A stretch of DNA of 32,000 bases from Aciduliprofundum boonei T469 (GTDB taxonomy: Archaea; Thermoplasmatota; Thermoplasmata; Thermoplasmatales; Aciduliprofundaceae), in the NCBI RefSeq assembly GCF_000025665.1, contig NC_013926.1:780001-812000 (forward strand). The letters run 5' to 3'. The translations under genes and the position numbers were made by a program. The notes beneath the pieces were generated by a model, which worked only from the letters and a program-made list of their open reading frames with translations, made no database searches and was not told the DNA's origin. This document shows positions 12,201 to 32,000 of this stretch, piece after piece. How positions within the stretch are numbered: position 1 is the stretch's first letter; the number at the start of each line of letters is the position of its first letter.

Positions 12201-12785
12201 ATGAGAAAATTGATAATCGCATTGGTCATGGTATTTCTACTTATCGTATCCTCTGCAACCGTTATTGGAGCACCCAACAAGAAGACTAGTAATAAAAATA
12301 AGTTCCCCACTATAACTGTGATATTTTCTGATGGAAAGGTTGCCGATATAACGGGTAAAATGTGGGCCACTACTATTATTCCCTATGTTGAAGGGAGAAT
12401 AAAGGATTATAAATGGGAGCAAAATCCGGATATTGCACAGTATATATTCTTCGATAAAGCTTTAAAAGGGCTGAATCCCTATGGCCTTGATTTCATAAAG
12501 GCTTTAGAAGAATCAACCTATGAGCAGTTCCAGCATAATATATTTATTCCCCTTTCTAATGCATTGAACAAAACGGCAAATTTGGACTCAGACCATGATG
12601 GCTATACGAATATTGAAGAGCTTAATAATGGAACCTTGCCCGGATTTGCAGATAGCCATCCCGGTATGAATAAGAAAACATTTTGGGGACAGTATGGTGG
12701 ATATATAATAATAGGGGTTTTGATACTCTCTATTTTTGTCCTCTACTTTGTTTTCAATAAGGAAAGTGAGAAGGAGAAACTTTAA
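12201..12785 (+). CDS. Secreted, C-terminally anchored protein (hypothetical)
   Basis: Start at ATG 12201 gives the signal-like MRKLIIALVMVFLLIVSSATVIGAP. Contains an acidic DSDHDGYTNIEE (DxDxDG-type, calcium-binding-like) motif, then LPGF. C-terminal TM YIIIGVLILSIFVLYFVF followed by NKESEKEKL. Confidence 0.6.
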   Translation: MRKLIIALVMVFLLIVSSATVIGAPNKKTSNKNKFPTITVIFSDGKVADITGKMWATTIIPYVEGRIKDYKWEQNPDIAQYIFFDKALKGLNPYGLDFIKALEESTYEQFQHNIFIPLSNALNKTANLDSDHDGYTNIEELNNGTLPGFADSHPGMNKKTFWGQYGGYIIIGVLILSIFVLYFVFNKESEKEKL

Positions 12786-14131
12786 AAATAAACCCATCTC
12801 CTTTCAATTCTTTTGAAGTTGTAAAATGTTAAAAGGAGCATAAAAGATGCTGTTATTGCAACAGTTATTATTGAATAAATTGATATTTCAAAGGTTCCTA
12901 TTACAAGAATCATTCCAGGTATTATGCTGTACATACTGAATTTTAGCACGATCCCTGGATTGAAGAGCAGGCTCGTTATTTTTGGACCTGCTATGTATGC
13001 TGTTATGGATAAAAGGTATATGCTGTTTAAGTAAAATAATCCCAAACTGGCAGGAAGCAACTCTAAAGAATTTATGCTAAATCCTATAATTATTGGAATT
13101 GAAATTATGGATATTATGATTAGATAAGCTCCAATATGGGTTTTAATCACATTTGAGGCCTTTAATGGTAGGCATTCATAGTATCCAAAATCCTCAAGGA
13201 TGGTGAGCCAGCTGTATATGACTGCAGAGAATATAGAGAGCATAACTGCCATACTCATTGGATTGTAAACATTCTTGCCCATGCTCAGATTTATTATTTT
13301 CACAAAAATCAAGAGCAATAGCATGGGAAGAAAATATGTGAATAGGGATTTTACAATAATGCCTCCTCGGATAACATCTTCCATCTCCTTTGCCAGTTTT
13401 ATGTCCTTGAATATTCTTTCGTACTTTTTGAGGGCCATGCCTTTTTTTCTTGAAACATCCTTTAGTTCATTCGGGGTTAAGATATATGCAGATAAGGAGA
13501 ACAAAGTAGTAAAGATAAGAGAGATTAAGAGCCAATACAAGTTCTTATTGATTTGGAACAAAGCCGGGGGAAAAGGGGAGATGGAGAGCATTACGAGAAT
13601 TAGGTAAATCAGCAGGGATGAAAGAAGGAGGTAGTATAATGCTCTTCTTCTGTACCAAAGAGAGAATGAAAGATAACCGAGGGAATACCCGAGAAACATT
13701 GAGATAAAAATTGTTATGGAGAAAATGGAAATTTGATAAATGTTCAATCCTGAAAATGGTAGAGAAATTAACAATCCGATTATTGTTGGGAGGAGGAATA
13801 GGAGAGTGTAATAAATAACATCTCTCAGAAATAAGTAAAAATAGTTCTTCTTCTGTGATATCGGTAGATAAGATGTTATAGTTGTTATGGATGCCCTCTC
13901 TTTACTCCTTCCTAGGAATTCAAAGGAGCTCACTCCGAATCCATATATAAATGTGCTTACCGTGTTTATTATTATAAATTGCTTGTATGGGAAAATTGTA
14001 AAGATCTCACTAAGAAATGATGCACCAACAGCTACAAAGAATATTATGTACAATGGGAAAATTATAAGAGAGTACTTTTTTGCGATGGAAGCGTGTCTTC
14101 TGTACTCTTCAATTAGATAATATTTAATCAT
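12782..14131 (-). CDS. Polytopic membrane protein, putative permease partner of the adjacent ABC ATPase
   Basis: 449 aa, about 10 or more hydrophobic spans. 8-nt overlap with the upstream ATPase gene. No family recognised by eye. Confidence 0.55.
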   Translation of the reverse strand: MIKYYLIEEYRRHASIAKKYSLIIFPLYIIFFVAVGASFLSEIFTIFPYKQFIIINTVSTFIYGFGVSSFEFLGRSKERASITTITSYLPISQKKNYFYLFLRDVIYYTLLFLLPTIIGLLISLPFSGLNIYQISIFSITIFISMFLGYSLGYLSFSLWYRRRALYYLLLSSLLIYLILVMLSISPFPPALFQINKNLYWLLISLIFTTLFSLSAYILTPNELKDVSRKKGMALKKYERIFKDIKLAKEMEDVIRGGIIVKSLFTYFLPMLLLLIFVKIINLSMGKNVYNPMSMAVMLSIFSAVIYSWLTILEDFGYYECLPLKASNVIKTHIGAYLIIISIISIPIIIGFSINSLELLPASLGLFYLNSIYLLSITAYIAGPKITSLLFNPGIVLKFSMYSIIPGMILVIGTFEISIYSIITVAITASFMLLLTFYNFKRIERRWVYF

Positions 14132-14804
14132 TTTCGAATTCCCTCAGAAATATATCCTCCAAGTTTTCAAGCTCATCTACGATTTTAATTATCTTTCCAT
14201 TTTTTATTATTCCTACCCTTGTGCAAATCTTCTTTGCAAGTTCAATTATGTGGGTAGCCATAAATATGGTGTTTCCTTTTTTTGCATAAGAAATTATGTA
14301 ATCCCTAATCTTCTTCTGGTAAATTGGGTCAAGATTTATGAAGGGCTCATCTAAAAAGAGCAGTATTGGCTTATGAATAAATGCTGTAGCAATCATCAAT
14401 CTCTGCTTCGTTCCCTTAGATAAGTCCTTGCATACATTCTTTCTATAATTTTTTAACTCAAAATCTTCTATCATTCTATCCACAGCAGAATTATCCAATT
14501 TTCTTATTTTTGCTACAAAGTAAAGGTATTCCTCCACGGTGAGGTAATTTGGAACACTTTCGTTCTCTGGTACTATCCCAACGAGTTCTCTAACCTTTAT
14601 TGGTTCTTTTAGGGGATCTACCCCTGCTACTCTGATTCTCCCTTTCGCAGGAGTTTGACCTGTTAGTACTTTTATAAGCGTGGTTTTTCCGGCGCCATTT
14701 GGACCCAGTAATCCAAAAACCTCTCCTTTTTTCACCTCTAAATTTAAATCCTTGAGAACATGCTTGTTTTCGTACCACTTGTTTAGAGAATGTACTGAAA
14801 TCAT
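14124..14804 (-). CDS. ABC transporter ATP-binding protein
   Basis: Walker A GPNGAGKTT, signature LSKGTKQRL, Walker B LLFLDEPFINLD, H-loop ATH. Confidence 0.9.
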   Translation of the reverse strand: MISVHSLNKWYENKHVLKDLNLEVKKGEVFGLLGPNGAGKTTLIKVLTGQTPAKGRIRVAGVDPLKEPIKVRELVGIVPENESVPNYLTVEEYLYFVAKIRKLDNSAVDRMIEDFELKNYRKNVCKDLSKGTKQRLMIATAFIHKPILLFLDEPFINLDPIYQKKIRDYIISYAKKGNTIFMATHIIELAKKICTRVGIIKNGKIIKIVDELENLEDIFLREFEND

Positions 14805-17819: not shown

Positions 17820-17943
17820 TGGGGCCGACCGGATTTGAACCGGCGACCTCCCGGTATCTGAAAGCCCCCTTTTACGGGTAAAGCCGCTTTTTTAAAGGGG
17901 CTTCTATCAGCCGGGTGCTCCAACCATGCTAAGCTACGGCCCC
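17820..17943 (-). tRNA. tRNA-Ile (anticodon GAU) with a 49-nt intron at canonical position 37/38
   Basis: Hand-folded minus strand. Acceptor GGGGCCG/CGGCCCC, D-arm GCTT-AGCATGGTTG-GAGC, anticodon stem CCCGG/CCGGG, loop CU-GAU-A|intron|A, variable AGGTC, T-arm GCCGG-TTCAAAT-CCGGT, discriminator A. Mature length 75 nt; CCA not encoded. Confidence 0.85.
17856..17904 (-). other. tRNA intron with canonical hBHBh' splice motif
   Basis: Nt 32-35 CUGA pair with intronic UCAG. The 3-nt bulges are U36-A37-G(i1) and A-U(intron)-A38. The flanking intron helix AAGCCCC/GGGGCUU abuts the central 4-bp helix. Confidence 0.75.
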
Positions 17944-20852: not shown

Positions 20853-21368
20853 ATGGTTCAGGGAGCATCAATAAGGCTTATAATAGATTATGTATCGAAA
20901 AAGAAGGGAATTGAAGGGTTAAATGCTTTGAGAGACATTGTTAATAAGGATAGGGTTATATTTATGAAAGAATCAGATATAAAGCACAATGAAAATTACC
21001 CCGGGCATTATCTTGCCAAAATTTTAGATGCTACAGTAAAAATTTTTGATGAAAATGAACTTCAGGAAATGGGCAAATATTTTGGTGAGCATATGGATGT
21101 GAATTTTAAGGGTATTTTGGGCAAATATCCCCCTAAGAAAACAATGGAGAATATTGTGCTTGTGATGAGAAAATATCTGCCTATTTTCCACACAGGATAT
21201 AAAAGTATAACCTCCAAATCATATTGGCTATTGGTTTCAAAGCTCAAAAAGGAGTACTATCCTTTCATAGACGGAATAACTCAAGCACTCTTTGAGAAGC
21301 ATGGGGGGATAAGAGAGGTTAAAAAGGCCTACGAGGAGGATAGAATAGAATACACACTTAAATTTTAA
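20853..21368 (+). CDS. Hypothetical 171-aa protein
   Basis: ATG preceded by GGTGG (20843-20847). No diagnostic motif recognised. The N-terminal pattern GASIRLIIDYVSKKKGIEGLNAL loosely recalls small ligand-binding/sensor folds, unverified. Confidence 0.5.
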   Translation: MVQGASIRLIIDYVSKKKGIEGLNALRDIVNKDRVIFMKESDIKHNENYPGHYLAKILDATVKIFDENELQEMGKYFGEHMDVNFKGILGKYPPKKTMENIVLVMRKYLPIFHTGYKSITSKSYWLLVSKLKKEYYPFIDGITQALFEKHGGIREVKKAYEEDRIEYTLKF

Positions 21369-21715
21369 TATTTCTCAGAAAAAATTCTTATTACGCTGTT
21401 TTGGATTATTGTAGATGCCAAGGCATCATCTATCTTATCAAAATCCACATCATCCTGAGGAGAAATGGCAATTATTTCATTTCTCTCTCCAAGAACCCAA
21501 TGCACAACTATGTTTCTTTCGTTTTTAATTTCTAAATATCCTTCTGGGTATGTTGGAGACCAATGATGTAAAAAGTCCCCTGAAAAAATACTTTTAAAGT
21601 AATTTTCTAGGCTAGTTGGGCCTAGGGTTGTGGTTATATCTATCCAAACCCATGGGGAGCTATATTCCTCAATAACGCTTCTAAATTTTTTCTCATCTTC
21701 TTTGGAAAACATCAA
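21365..21715 (-). CDS. Hypothetical 116-aa protein (downstream partner of the HicB-like gene)
   Basis: 4-nt overlap with the upstream small gene. No motif recognised. Confidence 0.5.
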   Translation of the reverse strand: MMFSKEDEKKFRSVIEEYSSPWVWIDITTTLGPTSLENYFKSIFSGDFLHHWSPTYPEGYLEIKNERNIVVHWVLGERNEIIAISPQDDVDFDKIDDALASTIIQNSVIRIFSEKY

Positions 21716-21879
21716 AGTACACCTTCAAACTCTTGCTGCAGTTCAATCATAACTTGGTCAAGTACCTCCTCAAATGATATTCCTCTGTACTCTCTTAGAC
21801 CTCCTAGAGGGCTCTGCAATTTTGCTACAAACACGCCATTTTCCTCCAAGAATTCTATGCTGCAAAGACTCTCCTCCAT
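21712..21879 (-). CDS. Small UPF0150/HicB-N-terminal-like protein (55 aa)
   Basis: From ATG 21879: MEESLCSIEFLEENGVFVAKLQSPLGGLREYRGISFEEVLDQVMIELQQEFE. This follows the HicB-N pattern (beta strands, xLPGxxxxGxTxEEAL, helix). The longer track ORF (to 21972) runs into the opp promoter. Confidence 0.4.
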   Translation of the reverse strand: MEESLCSIEFLEENGVFVAKLQSPLGGLREYRGISFEEVLDQVMIELQQEFEGVL

Positions 21880-21990
21880 GTTATCACCGAGCCCGCTATT
21901 GCAATGTTCTATAAAAAATATTCTGCTGGGGATTGAGTAAAGTTTAAATGTATGATTACCATTGTAGGGCAAAGTGGTAGGTGGTTAATC

Positions 21991-23427
21991 ATGGCTGGAT
22001 TAGGTCCTTATTTGGTTAAAAGAGCAATTCAAGCAGCGATTACGATATTTGTTGTTACCAGTATTATATGGGCACTCTTTGAAGCTATGCCGGGTGATCC
22101 AACTGATGCTTTTTATGCAAATCCAAATTATAAGGCAGAAGATATTGCGAATATGGCTGTATCTTTTGGTTTGGCCGATAAGCATGTGGAAACTTTGACT
22201 GCTAAGGCTTTCACTCCGGTACCTGCTTCTCAGATACCCAATTCCAATCAGCAGTATTCCTATTTCTACACGATATTATCTTTTAATCAAAATCCAAGAG
22301 CCGTGTCTATGACTCTGAACGAAAGTTATGAGTATGGTAACAAAACGGTTCAATACGGCATCTATGTGTTTTCATCCCCTGAAAAGGTTCCGTTGGATAA
22401 AATATACTTGAAGAACTCATCAAATGCTGAAGTGCCATCGCAGTACAAGTATCATTGGACTTCTTATGATAAGCTTGGAAGCTCTATTCAGAGCGTTGGC
22501 GTGCTACCAAAGAAGTATGTTTATGTTCTTATTGAAATCCCTCTGAAGGGTGTTCAGATTTCTCCTCAGATGAAAATAGCTCTTCTCTATGTTACGGATA
22601 AACCCCTTTATGAGAGGTATGTATTTTTCTTGAAGGATATGTTTACCTTGAATTTTGGAATCTCTTCTATTTACCATGAACCCGTTTGGACTATTTTGGA
22701 GCAGAGAGTTCCAAGGACACTTCTATGGTTTGGCTTGGCTACTTTGATAACATATGCTATTGGTATACCTCTAGGAACATATATTGCATGGAGAAGAGGT
22801 GGTGCCGCGGAGGGAGCGGTAATAGGATTCAGTCTGTTTTTCTACAATATGCCATCTTTCTGGCTGGCATTAGTGTTCTTGTGGATATTCTCCTATAGTT
22901 TGGGTTGGACCCCTATAAGCGGATTTGCCAGTGAGGGCTATACAGGTCCTGGCTCAACATGCGCTCAGCTTGGTATATGCCCTGGAAATCCATTCTACTC
23001 TATAGTGGATTACGGATGGCATTTGATACTTCCTCTCACTGTTATAGTTCTCTTAGGGGTTGCGGGAGTTATACTGCTGCAGAGAACTTCTATGCTTGAA
23101 ACACTTGGTGAGGATTACATACTCACAGCTAAGGCAAAGGGCTTGCCTGAAAAAGTGGTTCGAAATAAGCATGCTAGAAGAAATGCAATGTTGCCAATAA
23201 TCACATCTTTCGTTCTCTCACTTGCCTACGCTATAGGTGGTGCTGTGATTCTGGAACAGATATTTTCATACTACGGTGTGGGGTACACATACCTACAGGC
23301 GCTGATGGGTCAAGATTTCTTCTTGGCTGGAGCTACGCTTTATATAATATCATTGCTAGTCATATTTGGTAATGTGCTGGCTGATGTGTTGTATGGTATC
23401 CTTGATCCAAGGGTGAGGTTGCAATAA
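21991..23427 (+). CDS. Opp/Dpp-type ABC importer permease (OppB-like) with ~138-aa insertion in the TM1-TM2 loop
   Basis: MAGLGPYLVKRAIQAAITIFVVTSIIWALFEAMPGDP (OppB N-terminus), later the EAA-type region LTAKAKGLPEKVVRNKHARRNAMLP, and the ending ADVLYGILDPRVR. ATG 21991 is preceded by GGTGG. Confidence 0.85.
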   Translation: MAGLGPYLVKRAIQAAITIFVVTSIIWALFEAMPGDPTDAFYANPNYKAEDIANMAVSFGLADKHVETLTAKAFTPVPASQIPNSNQQYSYFYTILSFNQNPRAVSMTLNESYEYGNKTVQYGIYVFSSPEKVPLDKIYLKNSSNAEVPSQYKYHWTSYDKLGSSIQSVGVLPKKYVYVLIEIPLKGVQISPQMKIALLYVTDKPLYERYVFFLKDMFTLNFGISSIYHEPVWTILEQRVPRTLLWFGLATLITYAIGIPLGTYIAWRRGGAAEGAVIGFSLFFYNMPSFWLALVFLWIFSYSLGWTPISGFASEGYTGPGSTCAQLGICPGNPFYSIVDYGWHLILPLTVIVLLGVAGVILLQRTSMLETLGEDYILTAKAKGLPEKVVRNKHARRNAMLPIITSFVLSLAYAIGGAVILEQIFSYYGVGYTYLQALMGQDFFLAGATLYIISLLVIFGNVLADVLYGILDPRVRLQ

Positions 23428-23442
23428 AGGAGGTGTAAAGAA

Positions 23443-25899
23443 ATGGCAGAAGTATCAAAGTGGGACGAAATAAGAAGGCATATGAGTAGAAGCCTAAAAC
23501 AGGGTTGGAAACTTTATAGCCAGAGTAAGTATGGTGTAGTAGGGCTTGCATTGATTCTGATATTTGCGATAATGGCAATTTTTGCTCCATTCCTCACTCC
23601 TTATTCCCCTCAGTTTGAGGCACCTTCAATAGATGCTTTAAGACCTTATGTTTATGCATTTAATACTACTGCACCTGTTGAGGACATTGCCATAGGGTAT
23701 ACTCAGTTAACAACAGCACCATCGGAGGGTGGTAATTGGATAATTCTTAACTACGGCAAGAGTATCCAGGGTATATTCATCCAGGATCCTTCTAGAGTTG
23801 GAATGCCTAATAAAGATCCTTGGGGGACCAACTCTTTGAGATTCACTTTGAATCTAACAGATATTCCTGGAATAGGTGCTGATGAGACAGTTACAAATAT
23901 TGCTTTTCTCTCCCCATCAACATCGGATCTTCAGTATCACTACAGCGGTACAGGTCAAGATCCAAACTGGGATGGAGAGCTGGTGTTCACAACTCAACAT
24001 CATCTGGTTATATACGATATATATAATCTTAAGCCAAAATCCAATTATGATAGGGTGATTGTCAAGAGCTTGCCCTACATACCCACATGGCTCGTGGTTG
24101 ATACAACATCTTCTGGAAATCTTGAGGTGCCAGTTGTTTATGCGCCAGGTTCTGCGGTATTCCCTTCTAGGTTCATAGGTGTTGGAGATGAGTATCATGC
24201 AAATCTTTACTGGTATTATTACACATATTCAAATGATTCTTATCTTCCAAATGCACAGCAATGCTTGTACCCTGTTCTAAATCAGAATTACACGGAGAAA
24301 ATAATAATGAAGCCATTTCTATTCTACAACGATTATCTTTACAACGATAATCTTTCGAAGGATCAAAATGTGTTTATCGTTCCTCTTGAGACAAAGACTG
24401 TGGTCTACAAAGGGTTTGATACACACACCTATCCTCTACCATTCCCCACTCCTGGTGCTCTTCCGTTCGTTCCAAGGCCTAATGTTGTTGAGACAGTTCT
24501 TAATTTCCCGCTAACTGCTGAGCCAGGTTACTATGCGGGAAGTCCAAATTTAGGGAAGAATTACATATTCCTACCTGCTCAGAGCAACGGTAATGCAGTT
24601 GTTTATGTGATGAATCCTGCTGGTTCAAATGGTCATGTGGTAGTTGAGAATGACTGGACAATGAACATGGGAAGAGGTATGGTAACAGCTTCACCATCAG
24701 TCACATATTCTGGAGGAAATTTCACAGTATTTAATGCAAAATATGTGAGCAATGAGGATATGAGTTATGTATATGAGTATATGAAGGGAACAAACACAAA
24801 GTTTGAAATGGTCCCAATAAATAGCACCAAGAATGGCGCCATACCCGTTAATTCTAAGGTTGTTATGCTGGTAAATATGATACTCCAGAATGGAGAGATG
24901 CTTGCCCTTACAAATGGAAACGAGTTAACCCTTTATGTGTTGGATTTTTCTGATTATCAAACAACTGGAAAAATGATTGTTAGTAAGTTTATGTACTATA
25001 ACAATTATACCAAGAAATTGTCCCCATTCCCATATCCTCCGGGAAGCAAGCTATCTTACTTTGAGTACATGGGAACTCTATCTGGCTCAAAATATTCTCC
25101 TACTGCGAGCTCCAATGTGTATACTTTGTATTACTGTAATGATACCAAGACTGTAGGTCTCTTAAATCCAAAGGGTACTAATGTTCTTCCTCTCCCGCCA
25201 GGTAAGTATTTCAGCGGTAACTGGTACATCTTGGGTACAGATGATAAAGGTCATGATATATGGACTTGGTTAGTATATGGCTCAAGAGTGGCGTTTATAG
25301 TGGGTATTCTAGCAGCATTTTTCTCCGTGATGATAGGTACGCTCTACGGTATATATTCAGGATATAAAGGTGGAGTTGTAGATACTTTGCTAATGAGATT
25401 TGTAGATATTATGCTGACACTACCTGGTTTGCCCATATTGTTGATATTGACTGCTATCTTAGGTCCAAGCATATGGAACATAATTCTAGTCATATCTGTG
25501 TTGGGATGGTCCGGAATAGCCAGGGTTATAAGGGCACAGACACTCTCTCTGAGATCTAGGCCATTTGTGGATGCTGCTAGAGTTGCAGGAGCCAGCAATA
25601 CTAGGATAATGGTATCACATATATTCCCCAATGTGTTGCCTTATTCCTTCCTTTACATGACTCTTGGAGTCGCCGGTGCTATTCTTTCAGAAGCTGCTCT
25701 GAGTTTCCTAGGTTTGGGAGATCCAAAGGCGATATCTTGGGGACAGATGTTGTACAGTATACAAACTGCAGGAGCAGTTATGTATGCATGGTGGTGGCTA
25801 TTGCCTCCAGGTCTTTCAATTACACTGATATCGCTTGGATTCTATCTGGTTGGCAGGGCATTCGATGAAATTCTTAATCCGCGCTTGAGGAAGAGGTGA
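23443..25899 (+). CDS. Opp/Dpp-type ABC importer permease (OppC-like) with ~530-aa insertion in the TM1-TM2 loop
   Basis: N-terminal TM VVGLALILIFAIMAIFAPF. The canonical core resumes at ILGTDDKGHDIWTWLVYGSRVAF (nt ~25228), followed by DAARVAGASNTRIMVSHIFPNVLP and DEILNPRLR. AGGAGGTG lies upstream of the ATG. Confidence 0.85.
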   Translation: MAEVSKWDEIRRHMSRSLKQGWKLYSQSKYGVVGLALILIFAIMAIFAPFLTPYSPQFEAPSIDALRPYVYAFNTTAPVEDIAIGYTQLTTAPSEGGNWIILNYGKSIQGIFIQDPSRVGMPNKDPWGTNSLRFTLNLTDIPGIGADETVTNIAFLSPSTSDLQYHYSGTGQDPNWDGELVFTTQHHLVIYDIYNLKPKSNYDRVIVKSLPYIPTWLVVDTTSSGNLEVPVVYAPGSAVFPSRFIGVGDEYHANLYWYYYTYSNDSYLPNAQQCLYPVLNQNYTEKIIMKPFLFYNDYLYNDNLSKDQNVFIVPLETKTVVYKGFDTHTYPLPFPTPGALPFVPRPNVVETVLNFPLTAEPGYYAGSPNLGKNYIFLPAQSNGNAVVYVMNPAGSNGHVVVENDWTMNMGRGMVTASPSVTYSGGNFTVFNAKYVSNEDMSYVYEYMKGTNTKFEMVPINSTKNGAIPVNSKVVMLVNMILQNGEMLALTNGNELTLYVLDFSDYQTTGKMIVSKFMYYNNYTKKLSPFPYPPGSKLSYFEYMGTLSGSKYSPTASSNVYTLYYCNDTKTVGLLNPKGTNVLPLPPGKYFSGNWYILGTDDKGHDIWTWLVYGSRVAFIVGILAAFFSVMIGTLYGIYSGYKGGVVDTLLMRFVDIMLTLPGLPILLILTAILGPSIWNIILVISVLGWSGIARVIRAQTLSLRSRPFVDAARVAGASNTRIMVSHIFPNVLPYSFLYMTLGVAGAILSEAALSFLGLGDPKAISWGQMLYSIQTAGAVMYAWWWLLPPGLSITLISLGFYLVGRAFDEILNPRLRKR

Positions 25900-25904
25900 T
25901 CAAG

Positions 25905-26957
25905 ATGGCAAAAACATTATTGGATGTTAGAAACCTTTCGGTGCATTACAAGATTCAAGGTGGCTGGGTGTATGCGGTAGATGATGTTAGTTTCAAGTTA
26001 GAAAAAGGAGAAACGATGGGTTTAGTGGGTGAATCAGGCTGCGGTAAAACAACCACTGGATATGGCATAACCCAGTTGCTTGCAAGCAATGCATATTACA
26101 AGGAAGGAAGCAAAGTGATATTCGATGGTAAGGATTTTGTTCAAATGAGCACTGTGCCAAGCAAGGAGTATAAGGAGTATAGGAAAATAGTTGAATACCA
26201 TCCAGAGATGCGCAAGTATAGGTGGAAGAGGATATCTATGATATTCCAAGGTGCAATGAATGCGTTTAATCCTGTGTTCAAGGTTGGAGATCAAATAATT
26301 GAAGCCATAAAGGCTCATGAAGATGTTACTGACGAGGAAGCTAGGAAAAGAGTTGAAAGGTTATACAAACTGGTTGGTATACCGGTGGACAGAATAGATA
26401 ACTATCCGCATGAGTACAGTGGTGGTATGAAGCAGAGAGCTATGATTGCAATGGCTCTAGCACTAAATCCAGATTTAATTATAGCAGATGAGCCCACTAC
26501 GGCCCTGGATGTGGTTACTCAGGATAGAATTCTAGGTGAGATGGCAAGATTGCAGAAGAGGGAGAAAGTGGCAATGATTCTTATTACCCACGATGTCAGC
26601 GTTGTGGCTGAAATGGCACACAAGATGGCTGTGATGTATGCGGGACATCTTGTAGAGACAGGTACAACTAGACAGGTATTCAAAGAGACAGCTCATCCTT
26701 ATATGGAGGCTCTCTTAGCAGCTTTCCCAAATATAAAGAAAGAGAAAAAAGAAAGGCTTAAAGCTATACCTGGCTCTCCACCGGATTTGTCTAATCCTCC
26801 TAAGGGTTGTAGATTCGCACCTCGCTGTCCTTACGCTAAGGATATATGCTTAGAAGAAGAGCCACCTGTAATTGAAGTTGCTCCTGGACATTATTCAAAA
26901 TGTCATTTTGCAGAGGAGTTGTATGGTGAACTAGGCGGTGGTGAGAGCAATGAGTGA
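25905..26957 (+). CDS. Opp/Dpp-type ABC importer ATP-binding protein (OppD-like)
   Basis: [41 protein letters not shown]-terminal oligopeptide-transporter domain with GCRFAPRCPYAKDIC...KCHF. ATG 25905 lies 5 nt after AGAGGTGATCA. Confidence 0.9.
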   Translation: MAKTLLDVRNLSVHYKIQGGWVYAVDDVSFKLEKGETMGLVGESGCGKTTTGYGITQLLASNAYYKEGSKVIFDGKDFVQMSTVPSKEYKEYRKIVEYHPEMRKYRWKRISMIFQGAMNAFNPVFKVGDQIIEAIKAHEDVTDEEARKRVERLYKLVGIPVDRIDNYPHEYSGGMKQRAMIAMALALNPDLIIADEPTTALDVVTQDRILGEMARLQKREKVAMILITHDVSVVAEMAHKMAVMYAGHLVETGTTRQVFKETAHPYMEALLAAFPNIKKEKKERLKAIPGSPPDLSNPPKGCRFAPRCPYAKDICLEEEPPVIEVAPGHYSKCHFAEELYGELGGGESNE

Positions 26958-28026
26958 TGAGAATAATAATGATGTGGTCATTCGTGTGAGGAACCTTAAA
27001 AAATACTTTGAATTGCACGCAGGAATGTTCAAGTTCTGGGGTGAGCCCATCTATGTTAAGGCTGTAGATGGTATAAATTTCGATATACATAAGGGCGAGA
27101 TATTGGGTCTTGTTGGTGAATCAGGCTGCGGTAAAACTACAACTGGAAGATTGCTTACGAGGCTCGAAGATCCTACGGAAGGAAATATATTGTTCGAAGG
27201 AGAAGACATTGCAAAATTAAAAGGTAGAGAGTTGAAAAATTACAGAAGAAATGTTCAGATGATATTTCAGGATCCTTATGAATCACTAAATCCAAGATTT
27301 ACTGTGCAAAAGACCGTTATGGAGCCCTTGATCATTCATGGAATCGGTGAGAGCTACGATGAGCGTGTTGAGATGGTTATTAAAGCTCTAGAGGATGCGG
27401 AATTAAGGCCTGCTGAGGAATACTTGGACAGATTCCCTCATGAGCTGAGCGGTGGCCAGAGACAGAGAGTTGCGATTGCCAGGGCTTTGGTGCTGAGACC
27501 TAAGTTCATAGTGGCAGATGAGCCCGTATCGATGCTTGATGTATCCATTCGTGCTGGTGTGATGAACCTGATGCTTGATTTGAGGGATAGATACAATATA
27601 CCTTTCCTCTTCATTACGCACGATATAGCGGTTTCTAGGTACATGTCTGATAAAATGGCAGTGATGTATCTTGGAAAGATAGTGGAGATGGCAGATTCTG
27701 ATGAAGTTGTATTCAATCCTATGCATCCGTATACCAAGGCGTTGATATCCGCAGTGCCGGTGCCAGATCCAGAGCACAAGCATGGAAGGGTGGAGATTAA
27801 AGGAGAGATCCCGAGCCCAATAAATTTGCCTCCAGGATGCAGGTTCTGGCCTCGCTGCCCGTATGCTCAAAAGGGTATTTGCGATGTGAAAGAGCCACCT
27901 CTCGTGGAAGTTGAGCCAGGACATTATGTTGCTTGCCACTTTGCAGAGCAATTAGCTGCTGGAGAACTTGAAAGCGGAGAGGAAGCAAAAGAAGTAATTG
28001 AAGAAGCAGAAAAAATAGAATCTTAA
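26950..28026 (+). CDS. Opp/Dpp-type ABC importer ATP-binding protein (OppF-like)
   Basis: [41 protein letters not shown]-terminal [16 protein letters not shown]...ACHF and an acidic tail. ATG 26950 overlaps the oppD-like stop by 8 nt. Confidence 0.9.
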
Positions 28027-28027
28027 A

Positions 28028-28042
28028 TTTTTCTTTATTTTT
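28028..28042 (+). terminator. Oligo-T tract (TTTTTCTTTATTTTT) just after the operon's last stop codon
   Basis: Read from sequence. Archaeal termination commonly uses T-runs. No strong hairpin seen. Confidence 0.35.
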
Positions 28043-29333
28043 ATGGTTTTGTTCTTCTGATGGTTCTTGGATATGGTATGGCGTATTTTATATGGGAAAG
28101 TCCTGCAAGCCACCAAACGAGGCGATCAACACCTAATCCAAATCCTGAATGAGGTATGCTTCCATATTTGCGCAAATCCACATACCAGTAATAGTCCTCT
28201 GGATTGAGTCCCTCTTCTTCCATTCTTCTCAAAAGCACATCGAGCTTGTATATCCTTTCCCCACCGCCAATTATCTCTCCATAACCCTCTGGAGCGAGGA
28301 GGTCATGACATAGAACAACTTTTGGGTTATCAGGATCGGGCCTGTGGTAAAATGGCTTAATTTCTATTGGATAATGAGTAACAAATATTGGTTTATCAAA
28401 TTTTTTAGTTATGGCAGTTTCTTCATCGGCACCTAAGTCATCTCCATACTCTATATTTATCCCATTCTCCTGTGCAAATTCTATGAGCTCTTCGTATTTC
28501 ATCCTTATAAAAGGTTTTTCTAAATTCTTTAATATTTCTAAATCTCTATTCAAAAACTTCAGCTCCTTCTCTCTTTCTTCTAGAACTTTTTGGACTATGT
28601 GCATTATGAGCTCTTCTTCATCTCTCATCATATCCTCATTGTGATACCAAGCTACCTCTCCCTCAGCATGCCAGTACTCCGTTAAATGCCTTCTTGTTCT
28701 GCTCTTCTCTGCCCTGAAGCTTGGGGCGATTGTGTAAACTCTTTCCAAAGAGAATATGAAAGTCTCAAGATAGAATTGAGCGCTTTGAGATAGATATGCC
28801 TTTTTTCCGAAATATGGCACTTCAAAGAGAGTTGAGCCCCCTTCAACAGCTCCCGTAACAAAGATAGGTCCTTGAACTTCGTAATATCCATTCTCTCTGA
28901 AGAATTCGTGTATGGCTCCAAATACAGTGTGCCTGATTTTAAGAATAGCATTCATCTCCCTGCTTCTCAGCCACAGATGCCTGTTGTCTAGCAAGAACTC
29001 ATCGCTCTTGTCCTTTGTGATGGGAAATAGGTATGAGGGCCCGATGATATTTATATCTTTAACATCCACTTCATACCCTGTGGGAGCCCTTTCCTCTTTC
29101 CTAATCACTCCATTAATTTCTAATGAAGATTCTACGCCTACTTTGTCCAATTCTTTGAATTTCTCGTTTCCTATTTTTTTCTTCTCTATAACGCATTGGA
29201 TTATGTCAGAAGAATCTCTAAGAACCACGAATATTATCTTGCCCATCCTTCTCTTTCTGTATATCCATCCCCGCAGGGCTACTTCTTTCCCTATGAAATT
29301 GTCTGAGAGTACCTCGGATATGTGATGAAACAT
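28041..29333 (-). CDS. asnS: Asparaginyl-tRNA synthetase (class IIb)
   Basis: N-terminal OB-fold pattern (VALRGWIYRKRRMGKIIFVVLRD). Motif 2 FRAEKSRTRRHLTEYWHAEGEVAW (the EKS-TRRHL-E-W form typical of AsnRS rather than AspRS). Motif 3 GFGLGVDRLVWWLAGL...PYPR. Confidence 0.75.
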   Translation of the reverse strand: MFHHISEVLSDNFIGKEVALRGWIYRKRRMGKIIFVVLRDSSDIIQCVIEKKKIGNEKFKELDKVGVESSLEINGVIRKEERAPTGYEVDVKDINIIGPSYLFPITKDKSDEFLLDNRHLWLRSREMNAILKIRHTVFGAIHEFFRENGYYEVQGPIFVTGAVEGGSTLFEVPYFGKKAYLSQSAQFYLETFIFSLERVYTIAPSFRAEKSRTRRHLTEYWHAEGEVAWYHNEDMMRDEEELIMHIVQKVLEEREKELKFLNRDLEILKNLEKPFIRMKYEELIEFAQENGINIEYGDDLGADEETAITKKFDKPIFVTHYPIEIKPFYHRPDPDNPKVVLCHDLLAPEGYGEIIGGGERIYKLDVLLRRMEEEGLNPEDYYWYVDLRKYGSIPHSGFGLGVDRLVWWLAGLSHIKYAIPYPRTIRRTKP

Positions 29334-29415
29334 AAGGTAGCATGGGAGTTATTTATTTATATCTTATCTCTGGGATTGGCAATAATTATATATCGGTGAA
29401 ATAGAATATACTTTC

Positions 29416-32000
29416 GTGGCAAAAATTCGGGGCTTTTATTCGTACCCTATTTACGATTCCCTATCTCCGGTTATTTTAGATGAGCTTATTTACTATGATT
29501 TCATACATAAGTTTTATGAAATATTTGACGAAGAAACATCGGTAAATTTTGTTACATACTCTTTGAATAAAAAAGATTTGAATAAAATTAAAGAAATTGC
29601 TCCTTATGCTAGATTAATACACGGGGAGAAATACACCGAAGAAATAGGCATGTTAATTAAGGACTTATTCAAAAAGAAAAGTATAGGGATTAAAAATATA
29701 AGAACATACTATTGTAGCAAATGTGACGAGTATTTTAAGGAGAGTCAGGTTAAAATTATTCCCAAGAAATTAAGGGAGAATATTGCAAAGATTAGAGTGG
29801 GGAAAAAAATATATTTTCTTGGAGCTTTTTATGGGGAGGAAGAGCCAATAGGAGTATATCTTGGTAAGAACGATAGTTATGTGATTGCCCAGCTTTATGA
29901 TGAAGAATGGATTGCCCCAGCAAGTTTAGAGCTATTTTTGTTGAAGGAGATAGAGATACCCAAGAGTAAGATAAAAAAAGTAGGGTTTGAAGGAATAAAG
30001 GATTTAAATTTTGAATTGTATGTTATCCAAGGAGATGGGAGAGCGGAGCTTATAAAAAAAGGAGATATAAGGGCTAAGAGTTTAAAAAGAAGAATACCTT
30101 CCTATTCGGTTATATTTTCTAAAGAGAAAGAATTGCCCATAAAGACCTGTCCTATCTGTGGTAATGTCTTGCAGGAAGAGAATGTACCAATCTTAGTAGT
30201 TAAAGGAAAAGGTGGCACATATGATCTCTCATCTCCAGAAGGCTCATACAAACTTCCTGTTCTCTATTGTCCAAATTGCGGGCATATAGAATATGGCACA
30301 ATAATCAAAGAATGTCCAGTGTGTGGAAATATAATGGAAAGAAGATTCTCTCTTAAGCCAGAGTTATCCGCTCTGGGCGCTTATATCCATAGTTTTGATG
30401 CACCTCCCTCTCTAATGTTCCTTCACCAGAAGAGATTTATTTTGAAGTATTTTATGGAAAATATTTTGAAGGTTTATGGTAAATATCTTTTTAAAAATAC
30501 GAGATATCTTTCTCATAAAGTACCTGAAAGTATAGATGAAGTTAAGAGAGCTGCACTTTTGATAAAGAAAAGAGGCACTATAAATAAATCCGATATAAAA
30601 AAGATCAGAAAGTTGAGAAATGTAGTTGATAATATTGTTAGATATGTAGAAATTTATGGAACCACTGATGATTACAAAGAAGAGGATGAATGGCTATTGT
30701 GGAAGAATAACGAAGTTAAAAAAAGAATTAGAGAATTAGTAGAGAATGGTAAGATATCTTATGCTTTCCATGTTCTCTATGGGCATATCATTGGAGACAT
30801 TTCGCATTTTTATATACCAATAAAAAGGAAAACTCCATTAGTTCTTGAACCAGTTAGAGATGCCATCTTGATGCTTTATCCGTTTATGCCTGCTTTTGTG
30901 GAAGAGAATTTAGGAAGGATAAATGTTGAGAAATTTTCATTAAGCACTACTGAAGCTGAGGAGATAAGCACTATGGAAATCATAAGGGATTTCGTAAAGG
31001 TTGTCAGAAAGTATAGGGAGAAGAAAGGTATTCCGAGAAAAGAGCCACTAAAAAAAGTCGTTTTTGTAACTTCCTATGCTGATGAAGTAAATTCCCTAAA
31101 GAGTTCTATTTTGAATTTAGAGAATGTGCTTATATTTCAAGTTGTGGAGGATTGGGATGAGATGGAAATAGAGATAGAACCCAATATGGAAGAGATAAGT
31201 GCATCTTATCGTGCCTGGGCGCCTAAAATAGGTTTCTTGCTTCGTAGGAAAAATGTTAGGGAAGTTCTAGATGCCATGGAGAAGGGGGGATACACTCTTG
31301 GAATTGAAGGCTTCATAATTAAAATAACTCCAAAGATGATAAATTATATAAAGAAGGTTCCAGAGGGCTATGACCATATTGAATTTGAGTATGGAGATAT
31401 ATATATTCAAAACGAAAGAGATGCTACTACAAAGAGAATTAGGTTGGTTCGGGAGGTAATAAGGAGAATAAATATTATGAGAAAGGATATTGATATGGAT
31501 TTCGATGATTTAATTGATGTAAGTATTTCTGGAGATAGTGAAGCTATAAAGATGATAAGGGGCTACGATGATGAGATTAGAGAAAAATGTTTGGCTAGAA
31601 ACATTGAATTTAGCTATACGGAATACGGATACATTGTAGAGTGGCCTATAATGGGATACAGAATTACAATAGGTATAAATCCACTGTTTAAGCGTTGGGT
31701 TATAAAGGCGTTTAAGAGTATACCCGGTATAGATGATTACAGAGCAGAGCTTTTGTTTAAAATGGGGTATGGGAGTATATATGAATTGATGGAAGCTGAG
31801 CCAGAGCAGATAGCTGAGGCCACAGGTATGCCTCTGAAGCTTGTAAATGAGCTTATTGATTACCTCTACTCTACGGCTTTCAAACCTAAAAAAGAAAAAA
31901 ATAAGGAGTATTGCCCGTTCTGTGGTACCGAGCTCACACCTGATGATGATTTTTGTCCAAGATGCGGGGCACCTATAAGGGTTAAGATGGAAGAAAGAAA
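29416..32000 (+). CDS. Class Ia (IleRS-type) aminoacyl-tRNA synthetase-like protein lacking HIGH and KMSKS, with added HhH region and C-terminal zinc ribbon; 3' end beyond window (absent from ORF track)
   Basis: Hand translation is open from 29341 to the window end. Candidate starts are GTG 29416 or GTG 29395; there is no in-frame ATG before ~29649. Retained blocks are LFKKKSIGIKNIRTYYCSKCDEYF (CP1 entry), CPICG/CPNCG/CPVCG knuckles, KIRKLRNVVDNIVRY, DEWLLWKNNEVKKRIRELVENGKISYAFHVLYGHIIGDISHFYI and LYPFMPAFVEENL (anticodon-binding domain). Also retained is an IleRS-type C-terminal region (KRIRLVREVIRRINIMRKDIDMDFDDLIDV). Confidence 0.7.
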   Translation, partial: MAKIRGFYSYPIYDSLSPVILDELIYYDFIHKFYEIFDEETSVNFVTYSLNKKDLNKIKEIAPYARLIHGEKYTEEIGMLIKDLFKKKSIGIKNIRTYYCSKCDEYFKESQVKIIPKKLRENIAKIRVGKKIYFLGAFYGEEEPIGVYLGKNDSYVIAQLYDEEWIAPASLELFLLKEIEIPKSKIKKVGFEGIKDLNFELYVIQGDGRAELIKKGDIRAKSLKRRIPSYSVIFSKEKELPIKTCPICGNVLQEENVPILVVKGKGGTYDLSSPEGSYKLPVLYCPNCGHIEYGTIIKECPVCGNIMERRFSLKPELSALGAYIHSFDAPPSLMFLHQKRFILKYFMENILKVYGKYLFKNTRYLSHKVPESIDEVKRAALLIKKRGTINKSDIKKIRKLRNVVDNIVRYVEIYGTTDDYKEEDEWLLWKNNEVKKRIRELVENGKISYAFHVLYGHIIGDISHFYIPIKRKTPLVLEPVRDAILMLYPFMPAFVEENLGRINVEKFSLSTTEAEEISTMEIIRDFVKVVRKYREKKGIPRKEPLKKVVFVTSYADEVNSLKSSILNLENVLIFQVVEDWDEMEIEIEPNMEEISASYRAWAPKIGFLLRRKNVREVLDAMEKGGYTLGIEGFIIKITPKMINYIKKVPEGYDHIEFEYGDIYIQNERDATTKRIRLVREVIRRINIMRKDIDMDFDDLIDVSISGDSEAIKMIRGYDDEIREKCLARNIEFSYTEYGYIVEWPIMGYRITIGINPLFKRWVIKAFKSIPGIDDYRAELLFKMGYGSIYELMEAEPEQIAEATGMPLKLVNELIDYLYSTAFKPKKEKNKEYCPFCGTELTPDDDFCPRCGAPIRVKMEER

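Follow-up and report, generated by a model that had tools for sequence, protein, structure and literature searches.

A predicted beta-propeller domain at the TM1-TM2 junction of OppC-type permeases of Thermoplasmata

The 32,000-nucleotide stretch of the Aciduliprofundum boonei T469 genome analysed here (the window) harbors an Opp/Dpp operon, in which genes for OppB- and OppC-type permeases are accompanied by those for two OppD/F ATPases with an oligo_HPY C-terminal domain. The OppB/DppB-like permease gene (positions 21991 to 23427, + strand) was identified through matches of its product to Pfam BPD_transp_1 and BPD_transp_1_N and to the NCBIfam OppB/DppB models. The longest ORF at this position starts at 21952 (491 aa); the ATG at 21991, giving a 478-aa product beginning MAGLGPY, is the probable start, being backed by the NCBI draft call and by alignment with relatives of 332 to 335 aa. 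Aboo_0843 (23443 to 25899, +) is an intact ORF encoding an OppC/DppC permease of 818 aa, with a Shine-Dalgarno-like GGAGGTG (23429 to 23435, +), as read from the sequence, 7 nt upstream of its ATG. The start of the OppD-type ATPase gene (25896 to 26957, +; ABC_tran and oligo_HPY) overlaps the oppC stop codon, and the gene for an OppF-type ATPase (26938 to 28026, +; ABC_tran and oligo_HPY) is the last of the operon. An asparaginyl-tRNA synthetase (AsnRS) gene (28041 to 29333, -), whose product scores above the NCBIfam asnS cut-off, lies outside the transporter system.

The two ends of Aboo_0843 are those of a canonical member of the OppC/DppC class of Opp/Dpp type I importers (peptide/nickel, K02034/COG1173). 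The N-terminal cytoplasmic segment and first transmembrane helix (TM1) occupy 23443 to 23613 (+; aa 1 to 57, with TM1 at aa 32 to 50), an assignment based on Pfam OppC_N, alignment to DppC, hydropathy and the number of K/R residues, while TM2 to TM6, the EAA loop and the stop codon are encoded by 25192 to 25899 (+). OppC_N (PF12911) was matched at aa 19 to 62 (E=6e-10; 39 bits against a cut-off of 23.9 bits) and BPD_transp_1 (PF00528) at aa 632 to 817 (E=1e-28), the latter covering the full profile from 1 to 184, and the EAA loop motif DAARVAGAS...IFPNVLP is present in the translation. Residues 18 to 57 align with residues 19 to 58 of Escherichia coli DppC (8z1v_B), and residues 584 to 816 with its residues 67 to 299, the core being approximately 40% identical (Foldseek E=3e-10, 41% identity); from this alignment, the TM1-TM2 junction amounts to 8 residues in E. 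coli DppC and 526 in Aboo_0843. The six transmembrane helices have 19-residue Kyte-Doolittle means of 1.6 to 2.8. An earlier note, made from the sequence alone, had described an OppC-like permease with canonical ends, had located TM1 and the resumption of the core near nucleotide 25228 and had quoted several peptides, all of which were borne out. The NCBIfam OppC/DppC/NikC models match solely from about aa 584 to 596 onward, and all 14 OppC-type models remained under their cut-offs (the best, Opp4C, reaching 232 of 350 bits); the substrate of Aboo_0843 is, therefore, not assignable by equivalog.

Between these regions lies an insert (23614 to 25191, +; aa 58 to 583, 526 residues) which is predicted to be an extracytoplasmic beta-propeller. 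Its outward-facing position, as previously suggested, is supported by the homology of both flanks to DppC/OppC proteins of known topology, coupled with the positive-inside charge conferred by seven K/R within the 31 residues preceding TM1. It was computed to be rich in Tyr, Asn, Thr, Ser and Pro, and its maximum 19-residue Kyte-Doolittle mean of 1.14 agrees with the claim that it contains no hydrophobic span. Its description as a domain of no recognisable family likewise withstood searching: neither Pfam nor NCBIfam returned a match at E<=10, and phmmer and profile searches of PDB sequences were blank. The confident AlphaFold2 model (pLDDT 85.2, pTM 0.88) is built of about 35 strands with hardly any helix, forming a single all-beta domain of predicted four-stranded antiparallel blades. 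The best Foldseek matches in the PDB were all generic propellers of 7 to 8 blades (E down to 2e-7), including DDB1, Swd1, Nup133, the DPP-IV propeller, Sema and the clathrin NTD, with TM-scores of at most about 0.5 and identities of 6 to 13%. The insert is, on this model, predicted to represent a single beta-propeller of about 7 to 8 blades. Internal blade repeats were sought and rejected, as Pfam detected no blade repeat at the sequence level (WD40, Kelch, PQQ, YVTN, etc.) and hhalign no blade-to-blade or half-to-half signal within the insert.

When the insert profile was compared with 1.84 billion representative proteins, ten matches were obtained, eight of which are full-length OppC permeases of 759 to 832 aa and one an OppC fragment; these derive from Thermoplasmata and carry the insert at the same TM1-TM2 site. 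The tenth, a marginal match to a repeat protein of 1,811 aa (P0025; E=3.5e-4), consists of short repeated alignments to one stretch of approximately 50 residues and was dismissed as spurious, rather than taken as a home of the domain outside OppC. The insert HMM further matched 30 ORFs in the 29 sources examined, the window included. These matches define an undescribed family of predicted beta-propeller domains, existing only inside OppC permeases of Thermoplasmata, and our literature search returned no paper mentioning Aboo_0842 to Aboo_0845, nor any that describes an Opp permease with a propeller.

Unusual length alone may raise the suspicion of an artefact, whether through mis-assembly, gene fusion or a mobile insertion disrupting an ordinary OppC. 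An artefact of assembly or fusion was specifically looked for, and the complete T469 genome and an independent draft were found to carry the identical 818-aa protein. Fourteen full-length orthologues (54 to 96% identity) and more than 20 deeper homologues, all from independent assemblies, read through in one frame without interruption and carry the insert at an identical junction, and no break in GC content is seen along the gene. The insert is, moreover, under purifying selection, with a dN/dS of about 0.07 to 0.09. Together, these findings refute an artefactual origin. Its dN is 2.6 to 5 times that of the OppC core, and a fast dN together with a low dN/dS is what surface domains with a function typically show. 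Conserved across the deep family are the polar motifs P-x-W-x3-D-x2-S-x-G ... R and G-x-L-x-G-x-K-Y, with P214, W216, D220, S223, G225, R243, G544, G548 and Y551 as invariant residues. Collectively, these data support the insert being a real and conserved ectodomain that folds and that belongs to no sequence family yet described.

Aboo_0843 was compared with the structurally characterized permeases E. coli DppC (8z1v) and OppC (8z21) and Mycobacterium tuberculosis OppC (8j5q) and DppC (8wd9), with which it shares the OppC_N helix, the BPD_transp_1 core of five further transmembrane helices, the EAA loop and an operon context of OppB and OppD/F. It differs from these in the replacement of an 8-residue P1 linker by the propeller, in an operon lacking a substrate-binding protein (SBP) gene and in the enlarged scoop loop of its OppB. 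The statement that OppC proteins are usually of ~300 aa holds for such bacterial reference proteins but not for cultured archaea, in which OppC/DppC permeases of 455 to 505 aa are common, as exemplified by Pyrococcus abyssi "DppC-1" and those of P. horikoshii, Thermococcus aggregans, Geoglobus acetivorans and Nitrosopumilus. At this same TM1-TM2 junction, these archaeal proteins carry an extra conserved domain of approximately 190 to 250 aa for which Pfam likewise has no family, and which is less than half the size of the propeller and displays no detectable homology to it (hhalign probability 0.1%); the literature searched held no characterization of these medium-sized inserts. That enlarged OppC loops are common in cultured archaea lowers the novelty of the A. 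boonei insert. A further type, of approximately 490 to 890 aa and resembling PQQ/BamB-like propellers, occupies this junction in four metagenomic loci with closely related OppC cores (L027, L030, L032 and L033) and gives weak Pfam PQQ_2 and Beta-prop_ACSF4 signals below cut-offs. These PQQ-like inserts could not be linked to the A. boonei type by homology (hhalign probability 0.2%), and were either acquired independently or have diverged beyond recognition, whereas the inserts of L034, L036 and L022 are homologous to the A. boonei type (98%). A single origin of all OppC loop inserts is, with probabilities of 98% against 0.2% and 0.1%, not supported. The comparison of these sequences shows the OppC TM1-TM2 junction to be a hotspot, at which archaea carry ectodomains of at least three unrelated kinds.

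Since unrelated ectodomains occupy the same loop in other archaeal OppC proteins, bulk of some kind may be generally required at this position, which is in keeping with the propeller serving as a spacer, a tether to the S-layer or cell surface, or a glycan shield, with no direct part in substrate delivery. The envelope in question is that of an acidophile without a periplasm. The rapid divergence of the domain and its low-charge, Tyr/Asn/Thr/Ser-rich composition are compatible with such a role, as is the confinement to the insert of all nine N-x-S/T sequons reported in the earlier note, four of which (N74, N264, N426 and N521) are retained in 9 to 13 of 15 aligned sequences. Composition-preserving shuffles predict 6.7 +/- 2.3 sequons, however, such that the nine observed do not represent an enrichment, and sequon enrichment was rejected as evidence of glycosylation. 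The ectodomain, which had been called glycosylated, is thus possibly so and no further. No S-layer-binding or known adhesion domain was detected in the insert by Pfam, and the conserved polar motifs, coupled with a dN/dS below 0.1, suggest a specific interaction surface over filler. A purely structural role in the cell envelope is, accordingly, regarded as improbable, though far less so than an artefact.

The docking of an SBP was also considered, given that the TM1-TM2 loop of Opp/Dpp permeases had been named as the usual docking site. This property is established for the partner subunit and not for OppC: in the M. tuberculosis DppABCD structure, the 56-aa P1 loop of DppB forms the scoop loop which enters DppA, while DppC contacts DppA slightly, through its P3 loop (PMC10954201). 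Because the OppC P1 loop makes no SBP contact in solved Dpp structures, docking by the propeller would represent an added function. The insert harbors no SBP family signature according to Pfam and NCBIfam, its predicted fold being all-beta. Extracytoplasmic domains covalently joined to a membrane subunit are also a feature of OpuA, GlnPQ and the Bdellovibrio bacteriovorus MalE-MalF fusion, but these are genuine SBP folds at a terminus, whereas the insert of Aboo_0843 is all-beta and lies within a loop. A functional parallel is offered by E. coli MalFGK2, in which the P2 loop of MalF likewise constitutes a folded extracytoplasmic domain in a type I importer permease and stays bound to the SBP through the whole cycle (PMC6906923). 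MalF-P2 is an Ig-like domain of approximately 185 residues between TM3 and TM4 of a CUT1-family permease, in contrast to the ~526-residue propeller between TM1 and TM2 of OppC, and the likeness would be an analogy of function only and not one of class membership. Among type I importers, MalF is, to our knowledge, the only permease for which a large folded loop domain is understood in detail.

In most relatives, the operon encodes a giant SBP_bac_5 protein (~1550 aa) with a signal peptide and a C-terminal transmembrane anchor, as well as two small membrane proteins (X and Y). The propeller-bearing OppC gene is located directly downstream of the giant SBP gene in nine loci (L012, L019, L020, L022, L023, L025, L026, L034 and L036) and directly downstream of an anchored ORF, probably a giant SBP, in two more (L008 and L018). 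An anticorrelation between the insert and an adjacent SBP gene, for which the earlier note had advised a survey, therefore fails. Genes for the SBP, X and Y are absent from the DHVE2-type loci (the window, L001, L004, L098/L099 and L010/L011), and at the A. boonei locus no SBP gene was found anywhere in the 32 kb of the window or in the ~10 kb beyond each of its edges; a further locus, L015, combines a propeller OppC with a normal OppB and no adjacent SBP. AsnRS occupies the same position in L001 to L005, L008, L010, L036, L039 and L098/L099, and the SBP-containing and SBP-less operons are, therefore, orthologous loci. In a neighbor-joining tree of concatenated OppC-core and OppF sequences, SBP-bearing operons were present in all three clades, while SBP-less operons fell inside one; the SBP-bearing state is thus ancestral, and the propeller older than the loss of the SBP. 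The SBP-less operons did not form a group of their own in this tree, SBP-bearing L008 being placed among them with a bootstrap of only 44 to 65%. As the propeller coexists with a giant SBP in most relatives, it did not originate as a substitute for one.

What accompanies the absence of the SBP is a second insert, in OppB, of which the earlier note made no mention, rather than the OppC propeller. Alignment with OppB of normal size delimits a beta-rich stretch of 141 aa in the P1 scoop loop (22180 to 22602, +; aa 77 to 217 of the 491-aa ORF), for which Pfam and NCBIfam returned no match. Its HMM matches solely the OppB proteins of the window, L001, L004 and L010/L011, among the sequences searched, to which those of L098/L099, where OppB is also enlarged (466 aa), did not belong; the OppB insert is, on these matches, confined to SBP-less operons. 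Derivation from the small X protein was rejected at the sequence level (hhalign probability <1%), as was derivation from the giant SBP, the HMM matching only long OppB proteins.

These observations raise a further explanation, limited to the DHVE2 lineage, in which the OppC propeller and the OppB scoop-loop domain would bind peptides directly and pass them on to the pore, without a separate SBP. The DHVE2-type loci lack SBP, X and Y, the OppB insert occupies the loop which ordinarily projects into the SBP, and the propeller has been kept under purifying selection in lineages whose operon has lost its binding protein. In a search with the L022 SBP, which matched at least 190 Thermoplasmata clusters, no Aciduliprofundum or DHVE2 label occurred among the 120 representatives listed, nor among ten low-GC giant-SBP clusters; this search compared cluster representatives, which hide members. 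DPP-IV propellers are among the structural matches of the insert, and beta-propellers often bind or gate peptides, as in DPP-IV, prolyl oligopeptidase and tricorn. Against this stand the homologous propellers that accompany a dedicated giant SBP in most relatives, and we know of no natural type I importer that functions without an SBP or SBD. SBP genes located away from the permease operon are, in addition, well known, an example being the five proteins DppA1 to DppA5, which serve Pseudomonas aeruginosa DppBCDF (PMC4206461). The sample of SBP-less loci is small and phylogenetically clustered, and SBP absence, as judged from the window, its ~10-kb flanks and cluster representatives, is unproven. 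Direct peptide binding by the permease is, on balance, an unlikely though serious option for the DHVE2 lineage, and slightly more doubtful still is the stronger form, in which the importer would dispense with a separate SBP altogether and the propeller and OppB domain would act as a permease-borne peptide receptor or gate.

We favor the explanation, to which a probability of roughly 0.45 is assigned as a whole, that Aboo_0843 supplies the OppC subunit of an Opp/Dpp-type (type I) ABC importer specific to Thermoplasmata, in which a propeller of ~526 residues has taken the place of the 8-residue TM1-TM2 linker and stands out from the membrane's outer face, next to the translocation pathway. By analogy with the Ig-like P2 loop of MalF, the propeller is most likely an accessory docking or vestibule platform, which would position an extracellular substrate-delivery partner over the OppB/OppC gate; MalF-P2, which binds its SBP with a Kd of 7 to 22 uM, provides the precedent for a folded permease loop in such a role (PMC6906923). 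In most relatives, this partner would be the giant SBP_bac_5 protein with its C-terminal anchor. In A. boonei and the rest of the DHVE2 lineage, the giant SBP and the two small membrane proteins have been lost from the operon, and the OppB scoop loop has gained its 141-aa domain, such that the platform may serve either the OppB domain or a binding protein whose gene lies elsewhere. Against this explanation, strong purifying selection on the propeller where the operon lacks an SBP fits a role independent of the operon's own SBP, and L015, with its propeller OppC, normal OppB and no adjacent SBP, likewise speaks against it. Both the docking function and a peptide substrate are inferred.

In textbooks, type I ABC importers feature as machines that depend on a binding protein, and Thermoplasmata include abundant marine and sediment protein degraders. 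None of the three or more OppC TM1-TM2 ectodomains was found to be characterized in the literature searched. The practical payoff is modest, consisting of improved annotation of peptide uptake in archaea and a candidate for structural work; only proof that the importer does without a binding protein would make it substantial. Orthologous loci with and without the giant SBP, the OppB scoop loop showing a change that looks compensatory where it is absent, constitute a natural experiment, through which the role of the propeller and the need for an SBP become directly testable in cultured A. boonei T469. If true, a permease-borne receptor in DHVE2 would represent the first natural SBP-independent type I importer.

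Aboo_0843, the OppC-like permease at window positions 23443 to 25899 (+ strand), is encoded by an intact ORF of 818 aa, which is preceded by a Shine-Dalgarno-like site (GGAGGTG, ending 7 nt before the ATG) and was identified by exact sequence match (ADD08652.1/WP_008082411.1), its database annotation being merely “ABC transporter permease” (K02034/COG1173). Pfam assigned OppC_N to aa 19 to 62 and BPD_transp_1 to aa 632 to 817, and the NCBIfam OppC/DppC/NikC models covered the protein from approximately aa 584 to 596 onwards, all below their equivalog cutoffs. Alignment with Escherichia coli DppC (8z1v_B) paired residues 18 to 57 with chain positions 19 to 58 and residues 584 to 816 with positions 67 to 299; 526 residues (aa 58 to 583, nt 23614 to 25191) thus stand in place of the canonical 8-residue TM1-TM2 linker (the P1 loop), confirming the large insert described in the earlier note. 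Also borne out were its lack of a hydrophobic span, its richness in Tyr, Asn, Thr, Ser, and Pro, and its lack of a recognizable family, as Pfam and NCBIfam (E ≤ 10) yielded no match, nor did PDB sequences by phmmer or profile search. The insert also carries little charge. The insert is predicted to face outward, as previously proposed, because both flanks are homologous to permeases of solved topology and seven K/R residues precede TM1. All nine N-x-S/T sequons of Aboo_0843 lie within the insert, four being retained in 9 to 13 of 15 aligned sequences; the count of nine therefore stands, but since composition-preserving shuffles yielded 6.7 ± 2.3, sequons are not enriched, and the glycosylation proposed in the note is only possible.

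The full-length AF2 model (pLDDT 72) presented the insert as all-beta, and Foldseek matched its core to DppC/OppC and the remainder to propellers. An insert-only AF2 model built from a 20-sequence alignment was confident (pLDDT 85.2, pTM 0.88, about 35 strands) and matched solely generic 7- to 8-blade beta-propellers (DDB1, Swd1, Nup133, the DPP-IV propeller, semaphorin, and the clathrin N-terminal domain), with TM-scores of at most about 0.5 and identities of 6 to 13%. Aboo_0843 is a type I importer permease whose accessory loop domain is predicted to represent an undescribed beta-propeller family; neither the protein, its insert domain, nor propellers in Opp permeases were mentioned in the literature searched.

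A k-mer-based search retrieved 14 full-length orthologues (54 to 96% identity) and one further protein with a very divergent insert. An exhaustive search of 1.84 billion representatives with the insert profile returned just 10 proteins, eight being full-length OppC permeases of 759 to 832 aa that carry it at this junction and one a fragment of such a permease; the tenth, a repeat protein and the sole candidate carrier outside OppC, matched marginally and was taken as spurious. A metagenome scan contributed 80 further loci. In the set of loci searched, the insert HMM recognized 30 ORFs in 29 sources (the window included), and profile-profile comparison brought in the inserts of loci L022, L034, and L036 (98% probability). 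The family belongs to Thermoplasmata and relatives, as judged from neighboring genes (DNA primase PriL, proteasome, and deoxyhypusine synthase) and from the names on co-encoded proteins (Thermoplasmata, Methanomassiliicoccus sp., and Thermoplasmatota). The insert diverges much faster than the core (e.g., 45% versus 81% identity in protein P0014 and 20% versus 66% in P0024), and its dN/dS within DHVE2, the lineage including A. boonei, is about 0.07 to 0.09 (dS saturated), indicating purifying selection on the domain. This selection, together with the orthologues and the exact match to Aboo_0843, excludes an assembly artefact. A purely structural role for the propeller, in tethering or as a glycan shield, is less likely, since its polar motifs are conserved and the insert is strongly constrained.

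Enlarged P1 loops are not rare among the archaeal OppC proteins surveyed, the nearest core relatives falling into canonical (~280 to 330 aa), medium (~480 to 570 aa), and long (~740 to 830 aa) classes, with outliers of 883 aa (L027) and 1,173 aa (L032). Medium OppC/DppC proteins (~455 to 570 aa) carry, at the junction occupied in Aboo_0843, a conserved domain without a Pfam family (~190 to 250 aa, reaching ~290 aa in the wider set), which seems to be undescribed so far. They are widespread in cultured archaea, among them Pyrococcus (P. abyssi “DppC-1” and P. horikoshii), Thermococcus, Geoglobus, and Nitrosopumilus, and are also found in MAGs of Bathyarchaeia and Thermoprotei (loci L043 to L094, e.g., L058:9272-10675 and L047:9998-11557; proteins P0198 to P0296). 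PQQ/BamB-like propellers occupy the same junction in other metagenomic OppCs (L027:9845-12496, L030:1141-3432, L033:332-2635, and L032:2029-5550). The L032 protein has an extra block of “YASLALD...IAYYD”-type repeats, and OppB is also enlarged in L027 (562 aa) and L032 (532 aa). Profile-profile comparison detected no homology of the A. boonei-type insert to either set. As all three occupy one position, the OppC TM1-TM2 junction is a hotspot for ectodomain insertion, of which the A. boonei-type insert is the largest well-conserved, lineage-specific form.

Aboo_0843 is the second gene of a four-gene operon, between an OppB-like permease (21991/21952 to 23427) and two ATPases with oligo_HPY domains, OppD (25896 to 26957) and OppF (26938 to 28026). 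No substrate-binding protein (SBP) gene was found within the 32-kb window or ~10 kb past either edge. Two small overlapping ORFs of unassigned function (116 and 86 aa; 21365 to 21972, - strand) are divergent from the operon, and a 171-aa ORF at 20853 to 21368 lacks a Pfam family, as does a 449-aa ORF (12782 to 14131, - strand) which runs into the beginning of a gene for an ABC ATPase (14124 to 14804, - strand) and may encode an uncharacterized membrane partner. A 124-nt tRNA (17820 to 17943, - strand), matched by Rfam (54.5 bits) and missed by ARAGORN, probably contains an archaeal intron.

Loci encoding a homologous propeller-OppC fall into two architectures. Type 1 operons (L012, L019, L020, L022, L023, L025, L026, L034, and L036) encode, in order, a giant protein (~1,450 to 1,650 aa), OppB of normal size (323 to 396 aa), propeller-OppC, OppD, and OppF. 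The giant protein (~1,550 aa at L012:4246-8874, L020:4121-8809, L022:619-5397, L034:1878-6527, and L036:4242-8921) has SBP_bac_5 as its N-terminal domain, contains Ig-like/MG4/CARDB domains besides, and bears both a signal peptide and a C-terminal TM anchor. L008 and L018 probably also belong to this type, since their truncated upstream ORFs finish in the same kind of anchor. Usually downstream are two conserved ORFs without a Pfam family, X (one TM helix and a beta-rich ectodomain of ~190 aa) and Y (four TM helices), located after OppF at L012:14785-15946, L015:14376-15556, L009:5162-6356, L008:6681-7683, and L036:14097-15094. Several type 1 OppDs are enlarged (408 to 498 aa versus 353 aa in the window; L012:12339-13685, L034:9852-11348, and L009:2860-4086), and their ABC_tran match is split, pointing to an insertion within the nucleotide-binding domain. 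Type 2 operons (the window, L001, L004, L098/L099, and L010/L011) lack the SBP, X, and Y and encode an OppB of 465 to 580 aa; L015 deviates, with a normal OppB, X and Y present, and no adjacent SBP.

An AsnRS gene immediately downstream in both types (the window, L001 to L005, L008, L010, L036, L039, and L098) identifies them as orthologous loci. Adjoining AsnRS, and conserved in several Thermoplasmata loci (L010 and L098), is a gene (29386 to 32000, running off the window end; complete at L096:6895-9918, 1,007 aa) whose large product matches the Anticodon_1 domain of Ile/Val/Leu-tRNA synthetases and has DUF5915, DUF835, and zinc ribbons, whereas no catalytic domain was matched. In a neighbor-joining tree of concatenated OppC core and OppF, type 1 was spread over all three clades and type 2 was confined to one (bootstraps bearing on type 2 monophyly, 44 to 65%), which argues that the SBP-bearing state is ancestral and the propeller older than SBP loss. 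A search with a giant SBP returned at least 190 Thermoplasmata clusters (MAGs), none labeled Aciduliprofundum among those inspected by representative.

The earlier note was supported in part: the anticorrelation between insert and adjacent SBP gene that it proposed to look for did not hold, the propeller normally coexisting with a giant SBP, and its premise that the SBP docks at the OppC TM1-TM2 loop fits OppB instead. In Mycobacterium tuberculosis DppABCD, it is the 56-residue P1 “scoop” loop of DppB which contacts DppA, entering its binding groove upon ATP binding, and the part played by DppC is limited to a small contact made by its P3 loop (PMC10954201). Among folded domains in permease loops, MalF-P2 offers the nearest functional parallel: this Ig-like domain (residues 91 to 276) binds maltose-binding protein (Kd, 7 to 22 µM) and keeps it bound throughout the cycle (PMC6906923). 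Because the homologous propeller normally accompanies a dedicated, membrane-tethered SBP, the best-supported reading, to which we assign a probability of roughly 0.45, is that it would act as an accessory docking or vestibule platform for a substrate-delivery partner.

The window OppB contains a beta-rich insert of 141 aa (aa 77 to 217 of the 491-aa ORF, nt 22180 to 22602) inside the scoop loop, between its first helix and the amphipathic helix, which matched no Pfam or NCBIfam family and showed no similarity to X, the giant SBP, or anything else in the loci. Homologous or longer OppB inserts are confined to SBP-less operons (L001, L004, and L010/L011 besides the window), and the OppB of L098/L099 is likewise enlarged (466 aa). 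The DHVE2 locus has lost the SBP together with X and Y, its OppB scoop loop has gained a new domain, and the propeller is still under selection, a combination that fits two readings. In one, the transporter would be served by an SBP encoded elsewhere; SBP genes remote from permease operons are well known, an example being the five DppA proteins that serve Pseudomonas aeruginosa DppBCDF (PMC4206461). In the other, the two permease-borne ectodomains would have taken over substrate capture, a possibility that we regard as unlikely. That the DHVE2 importer is a naturally SBP-independent type I importer is unlikely but, if true, would be of high interest.
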